This document shows positions 43,837 to 50,907 of a stretch of 64,000 nucleotides of DNA, in pieces. The translations under genes and the position numbers were made by a program. The first letter of the stretch is position 1, and the number at the start of each line of letters is the position of its first letter. Under the pieces are notes generated by a model. It worked only from the letters and a program-made list of their open reading frames with translations. It had not been told where the DNA came from and made no database searches. Origin of the DNA: Chitinophagaceae bacterium (GTDB taxonomy: Bacteria; Bacteroidota; Bacteroidia; Chitinophagales; Chitinophagaceae); NCBI GenBank assembly GCA_025360525.1, contig JANYCA010000144.1, positions 12,071 through 76,070 of the forward strand, given 5' to 3'.

Positions 43837-46800
43837 ATGGATTTATCTATATTTAATCTGTACAAAATTTACCATACTGTGAATTTTGAAAACAGTAAAG
43901 TCTTTAACCCCAATTTTGCAGTAGAAAAAAATGAAGCCATTTTGTCTTCATTGAATAAAATCTCTACTGCATAGCAGTTGGATTTTAGTAAATTAAATGA
44001 TTGATAAACAGGCACTATTTTTTACACACAAGATGCAAAAACTGCTATTGCATCTTGTGTGTTTGTCTAAAAAAGGGCTACTGCAAAATCTGGGTTTAAC
44101 GATTCGCAATTTCAATTAGCTCCTGCAATCAATAATCTTATTTTTTACAATGAAATTGACATATTCCCCGGTGTTATTTTAGAAAATAATTACACTGCCA
44201 TCAAAAAAATAATTCAGGAAACAAAGCAATACGAATTGTTTTTGCAACAAAAAGGCCGTCGTCCCAATTATGATGTATATGCTTGCTTTCAGCCATTTAA
44301 TGAAGCGGTAAAAGCCCTTTATCCTTTTTTGAAAAAACTTCAGCAGGAAGTTAAAAAAGGGGATGTGATTTTAAATATGTGGGATAGGTCGGGTTGGCTC
44401 ACCACCCTACTTTCCGGGTTATTTCCAGAGCAACATATCATTACTACCTGGGAAGGCAATAAGGATATCCTCGGCTATAAAGGCTTTTCATTCTGGATGA
44501 AAGAAAACAAAAACGTAACTATTTTATTCTGCGATTTAAATGCCCGTTGCCCATTAAAGAAAAGTGTATAGCATTTTCTGTTGGCTTGGATGCCTTTCAT
44601 CGGTTCAATCAACATTTATTGATTAATGAATTGATGAGAGTAGTGAAAGATGATGGTGCAATTATTTTTCCGCATGTACATCTAAGCAATTCGGAGCCTG
44701 AACCTTTTTTTGAAAGAGGGGGGAAACAACGACATGGAAAAGAGTATACCGAGGCATTTCAACTTTTAACAGCCAATACCAATTGGAAAGGTTTTGTTTT
44801 TTCGGAACCTGCTTTGTTTAGGGCAAATGATATTGATTGTGCAGCATCTATTGAGGTAATATCCAATCCCAATACAAGTGATTACAATGCAATGCTTGCA
44901 CTTTTACCAAAGGCATGGGAAAAGATATTTTTGAGTGCTTTTACTTTAAAAGATATTTCATCAATTCAGGACTCTTATATCCTTGTAAATCCATTATTAA
45001 AAATTGATCTGCACCAGCAGTGGGTTTCCATTGATTTTAATCACGTGAATGGTGCTGCCGGATCATTGTTAAAACGTCATCCTGTTTATTTGGAGCGGAT
45101 AAAAGATTTAGAAGATTATCACATTACAGAATTGGCAGCAAAGACAATATATCTGGCCAATAAAGGGTTTTCAATTAATGAAATTTGTAGTGGTTTAAAT
45201 ATTGACACCAATACAATCATTGCTGAATTGGAAATTTTAGAAACTGCAGGATTGGTGCAGGTGTTGCCCATATCTTATGACGGATTCCGGTTGCAAAATC
45301 ACCTGATATCACAGCAATACATCATTCTAAAATACAAGCAACATTTAAAAGCGCTGTGGAAAAATTCGGTAGCGCTTTTTGCTGAAAATATTGCATTGGT
45401 TTCCTTAATAGATGGCAGTGAGTTTACCTACCAGGATTGTGATGACATCATCAAAACCATCGGGTTTACCCTGCAAAAAAGCAATATTAAAAAGGGAGAT
45501 AAAATTATCATCTGTTCCAAAAGCCATTCAGAAGCTATCCTATTATTTTGGGCTTGTATGCAAGCAGGTGTTGTGGTGGTTCCAATTGGAATGCATTTGC
45601 CAGCCGCCGCTTTTGCTTATATCATAGAACAAACCAACCCTGTGTTATGCTTTACCAATCAAAGCGTTTTAGCCGAAAATAAATATAGCTTCGGAAATAT
45701 AACTACCATTCTTTTTGATGAAGCAGAAATGGTGGAAAGTAATAACGGACTTTATTTTTCAAACTGGTTAACAGAAGAAGAATTTAGCTATGAGGAAGCA
45801 ACTATCTCCCATATCGATGAAGCAGTTATTTTATTTACTTCCGGATCTACTGGAACACCAAAAGGAGTGCAACTTTCTCATGGTAATTTATACCGGAGTG
45901 GCCGGTTGATAACAGAAACTTTTTGTTGGGAAGCCGAAGATCGCTTTTTAGCATTTGGTGGTTTAGATAGTATGAGTGGTTTACGCAATGCTACTATCGC
46001 ACCCGCTCATGTTGGTGCAAGCGTAGTTATTCCTACAGAAGGTACCGGTAATAATTTGTTTAACATCGTTGAAGATGTTGCTCAAAACAAGGTTACTATT
46101 TTGGGGTGCAACCCGGCAATGCTGCATCAACTTGTAAAGCATACAAATAAAATAGGAAGCCAGCTAAAATCTGTTAAAACGCTTATCTGCACAGGCAATA
46201 AATTAAGCAACACACTAAGGGCAGATTTTAAAAATGCTTACAATTTACCCATACTCAATTATTACGGATTAACAGAAACTACCGGTATCTGCATTTCCCA
46301 ATCAATGGCAGATGTGCAAATAGATTTGGATACTATTGGAAAACCAATTGACTGCATTGCCCAGATTGTAAATGAACAGGGAGAAGTAATGCCAGCAGGG
46401 GAAGAAGGCGAACTGAGGATTTTTAGTGAGAACCTGATGCAGGGCTATTTTAAAGATAAAATTCAAACAGCGTTGGTGCTTAAAAATGGATGGTTTTATA
46501 CCCTGGATTTGGCCAGGTATACAACCGATGGTAATATTGAGCTCATTGGCAGAAAAAGGAATATTGTAAAAACAGCTACCGAAGAGTTGGTTTACCTAAG
46601 TGTGGTTCAGCAATTTATTAATAGTCTTTCATTAGTAGAAGATTGTTATGTATGCTCTTATCAAATAGAGAATGCTGAAAAAATAGCTGCATTCATTGTG
46701 CTGAAAAAAGGTCTTGATACAGATGAGCAGGCAGTAAAGCTGGAAATTAAAAATGCCATTGCAAAAAATTTAGGAGAAAATAAAGTGCCCAATAAGATAA

Positions 46801-46868
46801 CATTTTTACAAGAACTGCCTTACAGCGATAACGGCAAATTATTAATCAATCAACTAAATAATGAGTAA
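43837..46868 (+). pseudogene. Class I SAM-methyltransferase-like domain fused to an adenylate-forming (AMP-binding) enzyme, disrupted
   Basis: One frame from ATG 43837 with stops at 43972, 44002, 44005, 44068 and a 1-bp deletion in CCC 44543-44545; ELMRVVKDDGAII; LFTSGSTGTPKG; YYGLTET. The 5' start is a reconstruction. Confidence 0.75.
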
Positions 46869-48717
46869 AACCAACATTAACAGCTTGTTTGAAACATTAT
46901 GTTAACCGGCTTTAAGCAAAATTTTATTTGCTCAAATGCAGGATAATAAAATAACCTCCGGCCGACTGACAGAAGAAATAGGAAAACTGCATGCCATCTT
47001 TCAAAAAAATAGCGTTAAAAAGGGAGATAAAGTAATTCTTTCTACCAATGACGATTATTATACTGCACTATTTTTTTTGGCATTTCTGCGTTATGGAATG
47101 GTAACTATATTTATCGATCCTGATGTGCCTGCCAGGCGTGCAATGGCCATTATCGAAAAAACCGGCGCCAATATTTTTGTAATGGACAATGAGTTGTTTT
47201 TAACTAGAGGTATTGATACCAACGCAGGCTCTTTTTGTTTAAAAATAAATAAAGAAGTACAAAAGAAAGGGATGCTTTTTGATAGATTGTTAAAAAGTAA
47301 AAAAGCAGCAGTCCCTACGGATGAATCTATTTTTCCTGCCATTTTAAATACTGCTGTTGAAGCCCCACAAACACTTGAAAACATTGAAGCGGATGATGTA
47401 GCCTATATTTTATTTACATCTGGCACTACTTCCGATGCAAGGGGTGTAATGATATCTCACGGAAATCTTTTTGCTCATTTGCACACGCTAAAAAAAGTTT
47501 ATGGGCTAACAGAAAATGACCGGATATTAAATATTTTGATGCTTTACCATGCAGATGGAATTATACAAGGTCCGTTATTAACAGCCTTTAACCAGGCCAC
47601 CTGAATAAAGGCTGTTCGTTTTGATCTGTCAAATATGGGTGATCTTTTCAATGCCATTTATAAACACCGGATTACCCATTTTATTACGGTGCCTACTGTT
47701 TTATCTTTTATTAATAAATTTCACGAGGGATATGAAGACAGTTTTCAAACAGAAAATTTTAAATTCATTATTTCTGTTGCCTCCAAATTAGAACTCAAAC
47801 TATGGCAAGATTTTGAGCAAAGATTTCATACCAAATTATTGAATGTATATGGACTAACGGAAACCGTAGCTGGCTCCTTATTTTGTGGGGTAAATAACTT
47901 CCCCCGTAAGGTTGGCACAGTTGGTACGCCAATAGATTGCGAAGCAAAAATAATAAAGAAAGATGGCAGCACAGCCCAGTCCAATGAAGCTGGTATATTG
48001 TGGTTAAAAGGCGATCATATTTTCAAAGGCTATTTAAACAATGTTGCTGCCACAGAGGCTGTATTGATTGATGGATGGTTAAATACCGGTGACGTGGCCA
48101 CACGGGATGAAGAAGGCTTTTATGCCATAACAGGGAGAGAAAAAAATACCATCAATACCGGTGGTATTAATATTTATCCGGAGCAGATTACAGAAATGAT
48201 CAATACACATCCAAAGGTTCTGGAAAGTATCTGTCTTGGTTTGGCAGATGAAAATTTTCAGGAAAAATTGGTTTGCGCCATGGTAATTAAGCCACATGAA
48301 ACATTGGATAAAACTGAGCTACTTACTTTTTTACGACCATTATTAGAACAAACTCAACTGCCGAAAAATTTCTATTTTTTTGATGATTTGCCTATGGGAC
48401 TTTCGGGTAAAATTCAAACGAATGCAGTAAAGAAAATGATAGCAGCAATAGAAGATAAGGATGTTGACATGAGTGCTGCCACAACTGCCATTACTATAAT
48501 AGAATCTGCGGCAGAGGCTTTTGGAATGGATAAATCATTGATTAAAATGAGCGATACTTCCAACAGTATTGATGGATGGGATTCAATGGCCCATCTTGTT
48601 TTTATCACAATTTTAGAAAAAAGGTTTGCCATTCAATTTTCTACTGCCGAAATGATGAATATGAACAGGTTAACGGCTGTGGAAAAGATAATTAGCGGAA
48701 AGCATAAAGCGAGTTAA
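46861..48717 (+). pseudogene. Adenylate-forming enzyme fused to a C-terminal acyl carrier protein, disrupted
   Basis: ATG 46861 overlaps the upstream stop; in-frame stops at 46903 and 47602; YILFTSGTT, VYGLTET, WLNTGD; ACP motif GWDSMAHL. Confidence 0.85.
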
Positions 48718-50758: not shown

Positions 50759-50769
50759 ACTAATGGAAT

Positions 50770-50907
50770 ATGTATAATTTTTCACTAAAATGGTTTGATA
50801 AAAAGTACGCAAATGTTTTAATCTCTTTATGGTACTTGTTTCTCTTATTGCTGGTTTTTCATTATTTACATTCTGATAACGGACGATTTAAATACATTGG
50901 GTTTTAA
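50770..50907 (+). CDS. DltX-like 45-aa membrane peptide (not in the ORF track)
   Basis: MYNFSLKWFDKKYANVLISLWYLFLLLLVFHYLHSDNGRFKYIGF*: one TM plus C-terminal FKYIGF, 11 nt after the MBOAT stop. Confidence 0.75.
   Translation: MYNFSLKWFDKKYANVLISLWYLFLLLLVFHYLHSDNGRFKYIGF

Follow-up and report, generated by a model that had tools for sequence, protein, structure and literature searches.

With a probability of about 85%, the region between 43.9 and 50.9 kb of the window (the whole 64,000-nucleotide stretch of Chitinophagaceae bacterium DNA analysed here) holds a recently pseudogenised version of a self-contained cassette of five genes, which occurs mainly in Bacteroidota and in its intact form most likely encodes a Dlt-type trans-membrane acyl relay. 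The five genes are co-directional and run in the order ligase, ligase/carrier, SGNH protein, MBOAT and peptide. The genes and the adjoining elements are as follows.

42281..43600, + strand: AAA+ ATPase gene of the eCIS, open (Pfam AAA, 2.3e-29); left neighbour, outside the cassette
43526..43611, + strand: left copy of a direct repeat of ~86 bp, the genuine 3′ end of the AAA ATPase gene (76% identical to 50927-51012)
43879..46868, + strand: gene 1, pseudogene; MTase-like domain, winged helix and ANL adenylating domain (AMP-binding, 4.5e-65)
43902..44093, no strand assigned: 192-bp MITE within gene 1, at codon 8-10 (copies in the genome, terminal inverted repeats)
46861..48717, + strand: gene 2, pseudogene; ANL adenylating enzyme with a fused C-terminal carrier domain (AMP-binding on both pieces)
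48720..49637, + strand: gene 3, pseudogene; membrane-anchored SGNH-fold protein in the DltD position (weak DUF1574 match, fold search)
49634..50758, + strand: gene 4, pseudogene; short-form DltB-like MBOAT (Pfam MBOAT, DltB structure matches)
50770..50907, + strand: gene 5, open frame; 45-aa single-TM microprotein ending in GRFKYIGF, candidate DltX-like acyl shuttle
50927..51012, + strand: right copy of the direct repeat, a remnant of the AAA ATPase 3′ end (repeat comparison)

Gene 1 is coupled to gene 2 by a ATGAGTAA overlap at 46861-46868, and gene 3 to gene 4 by an ATGA overlap at 49634-49637. Both overlaps bear out the tight five-gene set described in an earlier note on this DNA. The motifs that it listed were all found, namely GSS...DGGH in the SGNH protein, LGIWHE in the MBOAT and the 45-aa open reading frame ending in FKYIGF. 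Its calls of the ligase, MBOAT and carrier domains were also correct: AMP-binding domains are present in both ligases, the final enzyme gene encodes an MBOAT, and the C-terminal ~90 aa of gene 2 form a carrier domain with GWDSM. The probable start of gene 1 is GTG 43879, not ATG 43837. In their intact form, genes 1 to 4 encode 932, 618, 305 and 376 aa, respectively, and intact 932-aa homologues of gene 1 reach 92% identity.

To locate the lesions, we compared the window, read as assembled, with the intact relative L017 (88% nucleotide identity) codon by codon. In total, all four enzyme genes are affected, by five nonsense substitutions and two 1-bp deletions in addition to one MITE, and only the peptide gene is left intact. 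Gene 1 contains the MITE at 43902-44093, from which its four in-frame stops at the 5′ end derive, and has lost 1 bp at ~44543. Gene 2 is interrupted by Q15>TAA (46903) and W248>TGA (47602), gene 3 by W99>TAA (49014), and gene 4 by Q26>TAA (49709), W268>TGA (50435) and a 1-bp deletion at 50754. The MITE occurs in five copies in the genome (89-95% identity), has terminal inverted repeats CCCA(A/G)ATTTTGCAGTAG and is flanked on both sides by TTTAAC; a comparison with L017, L021 and L108-L110 showed that it is missing from these relatives. Since every enzyme gene is interrupted, the pathway cannot work in the source genome. The pathway had been called complete, and this holds for the list of parts and fails for the working set.

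It is very improbable that these lesions are sequencing or assembly errors and that the organism has an intact, active cassette. Three defects in the region are indeed single-base indels, and the one in the GH3 neighbour sits in a T-run (52202). However, the five stops go back to six base substitutions (CAA>TAA twice, TGG>TGA twice and TGG>TAA), which are atypical error types, and the MITE comes with its terminal inverted repeats, a flanking repeat and four further genomic copies. Moreover, each of the four enzyme genes is damaged while the remaining window is open, including ORFs of 2204 and 1231 aa. Expression of the genes by reading through the in-frame stops (recoding, an alternative code or programmed suppression) is scarcely conceivable, although several of the stops lie within otherwise well-conserved ORFs. 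All three stop codons are used, with TAA and TGA at the nonsense sites and TAG both within the MITE and where the frameshifted gene 1 ends; the ancestral codons at the stops are Gln and Trp; and the neighbouring long genes terminate normally under table 11. With two frameshifts and the MITE present besides the stops, recoding was rejected.

The inactivation is recent, as judged by dN/dS: genes 1, 2 and 4 give 0.11-0.12 when the window is compared with L017, and for gene 1 the same value was obtained between the intact copies of L017 and L021. For gene 5, the dN/dS among close relatives is 0.06-0.21. Independent decay has also taken place in other loci: L021 lacks 3.0 kb corresponding to window positions 47688-50724, and the MBOAT is missing from L031 and L063. 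We found no paralogue of the cassette in the source genome and no cassette in 24 genomes of the same genus, and the search for orthologues in 40 relatives returned generic ANLs at 26-30% identity only. A comparison with an empty site in the same genus was ruled out at the DNA level, the eCIS ATPases of those genomes being merely 44-58% identical.

The earlier note proposed that intact homologues be sought by synteny, and the same gene order was found in about 70 independent loci, mostly of Bacteroidota with a few of Gammaproteobacteria and Planctomycetota. Such recurrence of an identical order indicates that the arrangement did not arise by chance. The cassette is intact in L017, L018, L020 and L109. 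Cultured strains with intact copies are Pedobacter changchengzhani, Pedobacter gandavensis, Cytophaga aurantiaca DSM 3654, Niabella hirudinis DSM 25812, Flavobacterium turcicum, Spirosoma panaciterrae DSM 21099, Flavisolibacter ginsengisoli DSM 18119 and Tenacibaculum xiamenense, which makes the family directly testable. No neighbour family recurs in more than six loci, no polysaccharide or LPS genes are recurrent beside the cassette, and no conserved neighbour indicates an acceptor. In the literature searched we found no paper describing the cassette, which may have been published elsewhere.

The MBOAT family profile matched the DltB structures 8JEM and 6BUG over the full length at about 1e-51. 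Its members are short (365-403 aa, about 376 aa in most loci), have invariant H262 and H299, and carry no fused shuttle motif. In these features (short form, catalytic His, no C-terminal shuttle motif) the gene 4 family corresponds to DltB, and the five other MBOATs of the source genome differ from it, all having 476-518 aa and ending in FIYFQF. On the DltB equivalog model TIGR04091, the cassette MBOATs scored 168-195 bits versus a cut-off of 375, and the fused AlgI/PatA-like MBOATs of the source genome were modestly below them (144-158 bits). The 45-aa product of gene 5 has a basic N-terminus, a single hydrophobic helix and the C-terminal FKYIGF, so that it shows the DltX hallmarks of a membrane microprotein with a C-terminal FXYXXF motif, and acylation of its Tyr is predicted. 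It had been expected that the peptide would accompany the homologous clusters, and in 65 of 66 testable loci a microprotein is in fact encoded adjacent to the MBOAT or close by. Its C-terminus reads [F]-x-Y-x-x-[W/Y/F], with the Tyr (position -4) invariant in all the loci that have the peptide.

In the SGNH protein, S69 and H280 are invariant and D277 is nearly so. A search of its profile against PDB sequences did not detect DltD or any significant match, with GDSL proteins at E values of 0.16-0.48, and a fold search was therefore required. The AF2 model of the L017 orthologue (pLDDT 89) showed an SGNH fold with N-terminal helices and a membrane anchor. Foldseek matched this model to TesA, PatB 7TJB (2.8e-4) and DltD 3BMA (8.4e-4), and thus the likeness to DltD is at the level of the fold and no greater than to TesA or PatB. 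Gene 3 also gave a sub-threshold match to DUF1574 (22-24 bits, cut-off 29.1), limited to the C-terminal third in the block V region. DUF1574 belongs to the SGNH clan and is listed as an SGNH family without known activity (PMC9487903).

The carrier domain of gene 2 was recognized as PP-binding in 40/40 members, its profile matches the ACP 2LML at 1.8e-11 with the Ser aligned, and the Ser of GW[D/N]S is invariant. It has the character of DltC, though fused at the C-terminus, and is predicted to be phosphopantetheinylated. No DltA was recognised among the ligases. Gene 1 scored 142 bits on NF003417 and 136 bits on TIGR01734, versus cut-offs of 476 and 560, and both ligases score better on generic fatty-acid, oxalate or malonate ligase models, with no curated NCBIfam cut-off reached. 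Their best matches are mixed, ranging over oxalyl/malonyl-CoA synthetases, feruloyl/coumarate ligases and an adenylation domain of LgrA. In gene 1, the A4-like region has a conserved D/E, not rigorously aligned to a reference, that hints at an amino-acid substrate.

The N-terminal module of gene 1 matched Methyltransf_11 in 11/12 members, in the C-terminal half only (model positions 44-95 of 95), and weak wHTH matches were found at about 340-410. A fold search with the whole gene 1 model returned ANL enzymes only and nothing for the N-terminal module. Gene 1 lacks the glycine-rich loop of class I SAM-methyltransferases (motif I, E/DxGxGxG, after strand 1), which in 16/16 aligned members is replaced by W-[D/C/N]-R-[S/T]-G-W. 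Judged by these residues, the supposed methyltransferase is a degenerate MTase-like fold without a SAM-binding glycine loop. The suggestion that the acyl unit is methylated was consequently abandoned. Gene 1 may supply or modify the cargo, and it is unlikely to methylate it.

As in the Dlt system of Firmicutes (DltX and DltA-DltD, teichoic acid D-alanylation), the acyl donor of the cassette is carrier-bound, the MBOAT is short and without a fused shuttle, and all parts are encoded in one operon. Both systems have a separate single-TM microprotein of ~45 aa whose C-terminus carries the F-x-Y-x-x-aromatic motif with its invariant Tyr, and both have an SGNH-fold protein that is anchored at the N-terminus and contains a Ser/Asp/His triad. 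The cassette differs from Dlt in having two adenylating enzymes, neither of them a DltA orthologue, a carrier that forms part of a ligase and is not free-standing, and an extra MTase-like and winged-helix module. Its SGNH protein lies outside the DltD Pfam family, with a weak DUF1574 match only; the gene order is ligase-ligase/carrier-SGNH-MBOAT-peptide, and the hosts are diderm Bacteroidota. Bacteroidota and other diderm hosts are not known to make teichoic acids, and on this ground the acceptor of the cassette must differ from that of Dlt.

The O-acetylation systems PatA/PatB and AlgI/AlgJ/AlgX share with the cassette an MBOAT with a periplasmic SGNH partner and an acyl-Tyr shuttle motif (PMC12148441). 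They use acetyl-CoA as the donor, with no carrier protein or ligase, whereas the cassette donor is carrier-bound. In PatA/AlgI-type MBOATs, the FXYXXF motif sits within the MBOAT, on two additional TM helices at its C-terminus, whereas in the cassette it is carried by a separate peptide. The source genome encodes five such PatA/AlgI-like MBOATs with a fused motif. MBOAT pathways other than Dlt have neither a DltX-like microprotein nor a carrier protein (PMC12148441). The cassette shows the split design of Dlt in at least 70 Gram-negative species with different loading enzymes, and from this an envelope modification not yet described is predicted.

Domain identities, conserved catalytic residues, gene order and conservation are established for the cassette, and from these we infer its chemistry, substrate and acceptor. 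The ANL-carrier fusion encoded by gene 2 would adenylate an organic or amino acid and thioesterify its own phosphopantetheinyl carrier domain. The short DltB-like MBOAT would then pass the acyl group through the inner membrane to the invariant Tyr of gene 5. Finally, the membrane-anchored SGNH protein would receive the acyl group on its Ser and transfer it to a putative periplasmic or envelope acceptor. The architecture of the cassette agrees with the published acyl-Tyr shuttle mechanism of DltB, DltX-Tyr and DltD (PMC12148441). As a prediction from protein sequences, the relay logic is well supported for the gene family: the Dlt-type relay of the earlier note stands there on the short MBOAT, the Tyr microprotein, the carrier Ser and the SGNH triad, and in the window it is dead.

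The intact cassette could instead decorate no envelope polymer and make or export a diffusible product or a membrane lipid, for example if the SGNH protein were a hydrolase freeing an acid in the periplasm, or if a lipid head group were acylated. This is suggested by the resemblance of the ligases to small-acid and NRPS-type adenylating enzymes (oxalyl/malonyl-CoA synthetases, LgrA), by the thioesterase TesA among the closest SGNH folds, and by the lack of recurrent polysaccharide or LPS genes beside the cassette. We consider it unlikely, as all characterised MBOAT-SGNH pairs with an acyl-Tyr shuttle acylate an envelope polymer (PMC12148441), and the SGNH protein is membrane-anchored beside the MBOAT, like DltD. 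For the envelope relay, the chances seem evenly balanced that the intact family is the first carrier-fed MBOAT-SGNH relay with a free DltX-like Tyr shuttle outside Gram-positive Dlt. It would esterify a lipid or glycan of the diderm envelope with an acyl or aminoacyl group other than D-alanine or acetate, possibly a two-part unit from both ligases, and the MTase-like/winged-helix module of gene 1 would be substrate-binding or regulatory. If this is true, the window copy together with L021, L031 and L063 shows that the envelope decoration is dispensable and has been lost repeatedly.

The position of the cassette beside the eCIS had been taken as a sign of surface modification, possibly for self-protection. 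The cassette directly follows the eCIS AAA ATPase in the window and, among the other copies, only in the close relatives L017 and L110 (both metagenome contigs), and in the window it is bracketed by two copies of the 3′ end of this ATPase gene. Nevertheless, it is highly improbable that the cassette is an eCIS accessory, whether it protects the surface against the cell's own particles or modifies cargo. Matches to sheath, tube, VgrG, tape-measure, baseplate and AAA proteins within 10 kb were found in 0/78 genome loci, neighbour families are not recurrent, and the conserved association with eCIS core genes that marks an accessory or immunity function is missing. Three close relatives, L108, L109 and L021, have the cassette and lack the eCIS. 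Of the AAA ATPase gene, L108 and L109 retain only 130-170 bp from the 3′ end, and L021 retains nothing. In the source genome, the eCIS ORFs are open while the cassette has been inactivated. The proposed link and the self-protection therefore fell away. The adjacency is inherited within a small clade and is a local accident, not functional, and the window copy, being a pseudogene, says nothing on eCIS biology. In L017 and L109, too, the right copy of the repeat follows the cassette, and it falls within the block over which L021 aligns.

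Five co-directional, tightly packed reading frames occupy 43.8-50.9 kb on the + strand. Pfam assigned AMP-binding and AMP-binding_C domains to genes 1 and 2, a weak match to DUF1574 (SGNH clan) to gene 3, and MBOAT to gene 4, the last large frame. The junctions and motifs quoted in the earlier note are present: genes 1 and 2 overlap in ATGAGTAA at 46861-46868, genes 3 and 4 overlap in ATGA at 49634-49637, IIGSSLV and DGGH occur in gene 3, and LGIWHE occurs in gene 4. The short transmembrane-peptide ORF (gene 5; 45 codons, 50770-50907) was also confirmed, with the C-terminal end GRFKYIGF. 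The earlier note's observation of a complete pathway holds in part: its parts are correct, but the frames are fragmented, the set is not functional, and the methyltransferase is degenerate. The lesions were mapped by codon-by-codon comparison of the window with L017, the closest long intact relative, with a DNA identity of 88% across the whole block.

Lesions in the window copy of the cassette (+ strand), relative to L017
43902-44093, gene 1: 192-bp insertion directly after codon 8-10
~44543, gene 1: 1-bp deletion, codon 158
46903, gene 2: Q15, CAA>TAA
47602, gene 2: W248, TGG>TGA
49014, gene 3: W99, TGG>TAA
49709, gene 4: Q26, CAA>TAA
50435, gene 4: W268, TGG>TGA
50754, gene 4: 1-bp deletion, codon 374

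The 192-bp insertion is a MITE, with ~17-bp terminal inverted repeats, CCCA(A/G)ATTTTGCAGTAG, an internal hairpin, and TTTAAC flanks on both sides. The family has five genomic copies of ~190 bp with an identity of 89-95%, one in the window and four elsewhere in this genome.

Other genomic copies of the MITE
C73:11890-12085
C55:42964-43156
C164:1420-1615
C118:40180-40374

Four in-frame stops at the 5′ end of gene 1 come from the MITE, so the nonsense substitutions number only five, alongside the two single-base deletions and the MITE itself. Assembly errors do not typically take the form of stop-creating substitutions or of a MITE that brings its own repeats. TAA and TGA occur at the nonsense sites, where the ancestral codons are those for Gln and Trp, and TAG occurs inside the MITE and closes the frameshifted reading of gene 1. 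With all three stop codons represented, and with Gln and Trp codons as their precursors, stop-codon recoding was excluded. Between the window and L017, gene 3, which evolves fast, had a dN/dS ratio of 0.34, and genes 1, 2, and 4 had ratios of 0.11-0.12. The latter are the same as the ratio between the gene 1 copies of L017 and L021 (a related Chitinophagaceae MAG), both of which are intact; the inactivation of the cassette is therefore recent relative to its split from these relatives. In L021, a 3.0-kb deletion (L021:4854-4855, equivalent to window 47688-50724) takes the 3′ half of gene 2, the whole of gene 3, and nearly all of gene 4, and spares the peptide gene. This deletion is a separate, independent loss of the same cassette.

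No second copy of the cassette was found in this 4.9-Mb genome, and none of 24 same-genus genomes carries an orthologue. A search of 5.8 billion proteins gave hundreds of full-length gene 1 homologues (~932 aa). When each species was represented by a single genome, 139 relatives were returned and 78 loci were retained, mostly in Chitinophagaceae, Saprospiraceae, Cytophagales, Sphingobacteriales, and Flavobacteriales, with a minority in a few Gammaproteobacteria, one Planctomycetota MAG, and others. Nearly all loci with enough sequence have the same order: gene 1, gene 2, a ~300-aa protein, the MBOAT, and the small peptide. The SGNH gene is placed after the MBOAT in four loci (L038, L042, L090, and L092), and the MBOAT is absent from L031 and L063. 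Two gammaproteobacterial loci (L084, 5422-7216; L096, 14461-16220) have two consecutive ~295-aa proteins without Pfam matches between gene 2 and the MBOAT, where Bacteroidota cassettes have one SGNH gene. No flanking gene family recurred in more than six loci; hence, the five genes behave as a self-contained unit. Cultured strains with an intact cassette include Pedobacter changchengzhani E01020, Cytophaga aurantiaca DSM 3654, and Flavobacterium turcicum F-339. Among the papers searched, none describing the cassette was found.

The C-terminal ~90 residues of gene 2 form a carrier domain. The carrier profile matches the ACP structure 2LML (1.8e-11), with GW[D/N]S in register with the phosphopantetheine Ser, and PP-binding was matched by all 40 gene 2 members. 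The gene 2 ligase is nearest to oxalyl/malonyl-CoA synthetases, and for the gene 1 ANL domain the closest matches are an NRPS adenylation domain and aryl-CoA ligases; neither ligase reached a curated family cut-off. In gene 1, a ~430-aa N-terminal segment is joined to an ANL domain that is complete and has the core motifs conserved. In the N-terminal segment, 11 of 12 members matched the C-terminal half only of the Methyltransf_11 model, and a winged-helix-like segment follows the MTase-like part at ~340-410. The SAM-binding glycine loop was found in none of 16 members, all of which have W-[D/C/N]-R-[S/T]-G-W instead; for this reason, we read this part as a degenerate MTase fold, and the proposal that the transferred unit is methylated is not supported. 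In distant homologues of gene 1 (P0102, P0108, and P0114, from Fulvivirga, Ekhidna, and Imperialibacter), the MTase-like domain is preceded by a CxxC...CxxC zinc-ribbon-like segment at the N-terminus, which is absent from the Chitinophagaceae members. In two Ekhidna homologues the ANL A10 lysine is replaced (GN).

The gene 3 family has an invariant Ser69 (GSS), an invariant His280, and an almost invariant Asp277, giving a DxxH block. In the AlphaFold model (pLDDT 89, pTM 0.87), an alpha/beta domain comes after two helices at the N-terminus. A Foldseek search with this domain returned TesA (2e-5), PatB 7TJB (2.8e-4), and DltD 3BMA (8.4e-4), which places the modelled domain, by predicted fold, among SGNH hydrolases/transferases.

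A gene 4 profile, for which 44 members of the family were used, matches DltB (structures 8JEM and 6BUG) over the full length (E ~1e-51), and two His residues are invariant in the family. With TIGR04091, the DltB model and the only NCBIfam bacterial MBOAT model, gene 4 scored 168-195 bits, below the cut-off of 375 and just modestly higher than the other MBOATs of this genome (144-158 bits). It is the architecture that sets the family apart. Its members have 365-403 aa (~376 in most loci) and lack the fused shuttle motif FIYFQF, whereas the five other MBOATs of the genome, all intact, have 476-518 aa and invariably carry this acyl-shuttle motif at the C-terminus. Two of them, on contig C132, lie ~2 kb from each other.

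Other MBOAT genes of the genome
C84:42755-43351
C132:24980-25582
C132:27416-28312
C138:36815-37411
C93:23993-24601

The gene 5 microprotein was present in 65 of the 66 loci where a search was possible, and it is under purifying selection. Its N-terminus is basic, it contains a single hydrophobic helix, and at the C-terminus it carries [F/I/L/M]-x-Y-x-x-[W/Y/F/L/I], in which the Tyr is invariant. In Dlt and PatAB, the MBOAT transfers the acyl group to the Tyr of an FXYXXF shuttle motif, from which it passes to the SGNH Ser and on to the polymer; pathways other than Dlt have neither a carrier protein nor a DltX-like microprotein (PMC12148441). The cassette has all of the Dlt-specific design features, whereas its loading enzymes are non-orthologous to those of Dlt. 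The earlier suggestion of a Dlt-like MBOAT-SGNH relay is supported for the family; the set in the window is non-functional. Since these features are all reproduced, intact cassettes would most likely (with a probability of about 0.7) run a carrier-fed, trans-membrane acyl relay onto some envelope acceptor. The main alternative is that an intact cassette yields a diffusible or lipid product.

The cassette directly follows the AAA ATPase gene of the eCIS in the window, L017, and L110. In L108 and L109, which lack the eCIS and are as close as L017 and L110, the upstream ATPase gene is reduced to a 3′ fragment of 130-170 bp, and L021 has no ATPase remnant upstream. In the window, a direct repeat (43526-43611 and 50927-51012; 76% over 86 bp) brackets the cassette. 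Both copies correspond to the ATPase 3′ end, and the right one, immediately past the peptide gene, is degenerate. This arrangement may have been left behind by a second ATPase gene or by an integration event at the ATPase 3′ end; no integrase was seen. The synteny check did not bear out the proposed link to the eCIS: eCIS markers were found within 10 kb in none of the 78 genome loci. The eCIS upstream of the cassette is complete and open (sheath, tube, VgrG-like spike, tape measure, 2204-aa protein, and AAA ATPase); an intact eCIS beside a dead cassette argues against the suggested role in self-protection. On the simplest reading, the ancestor of a small Chitinophagaceae-like clade already had the two side by side, deletions on all sides later eroded the arrangement, and it reflects no functional link.

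To the right of the cassette, a GH3 glycoside hydrolase gene (51005-53153, - strand) falls into two ORFs because a T-run at ~52202 is one T longer than in the uninterrupted orthologue of L109. Just the last ~112 codons of this gene are kept in L017 and L021, with a common breakpoint equivalent to window position 51340.
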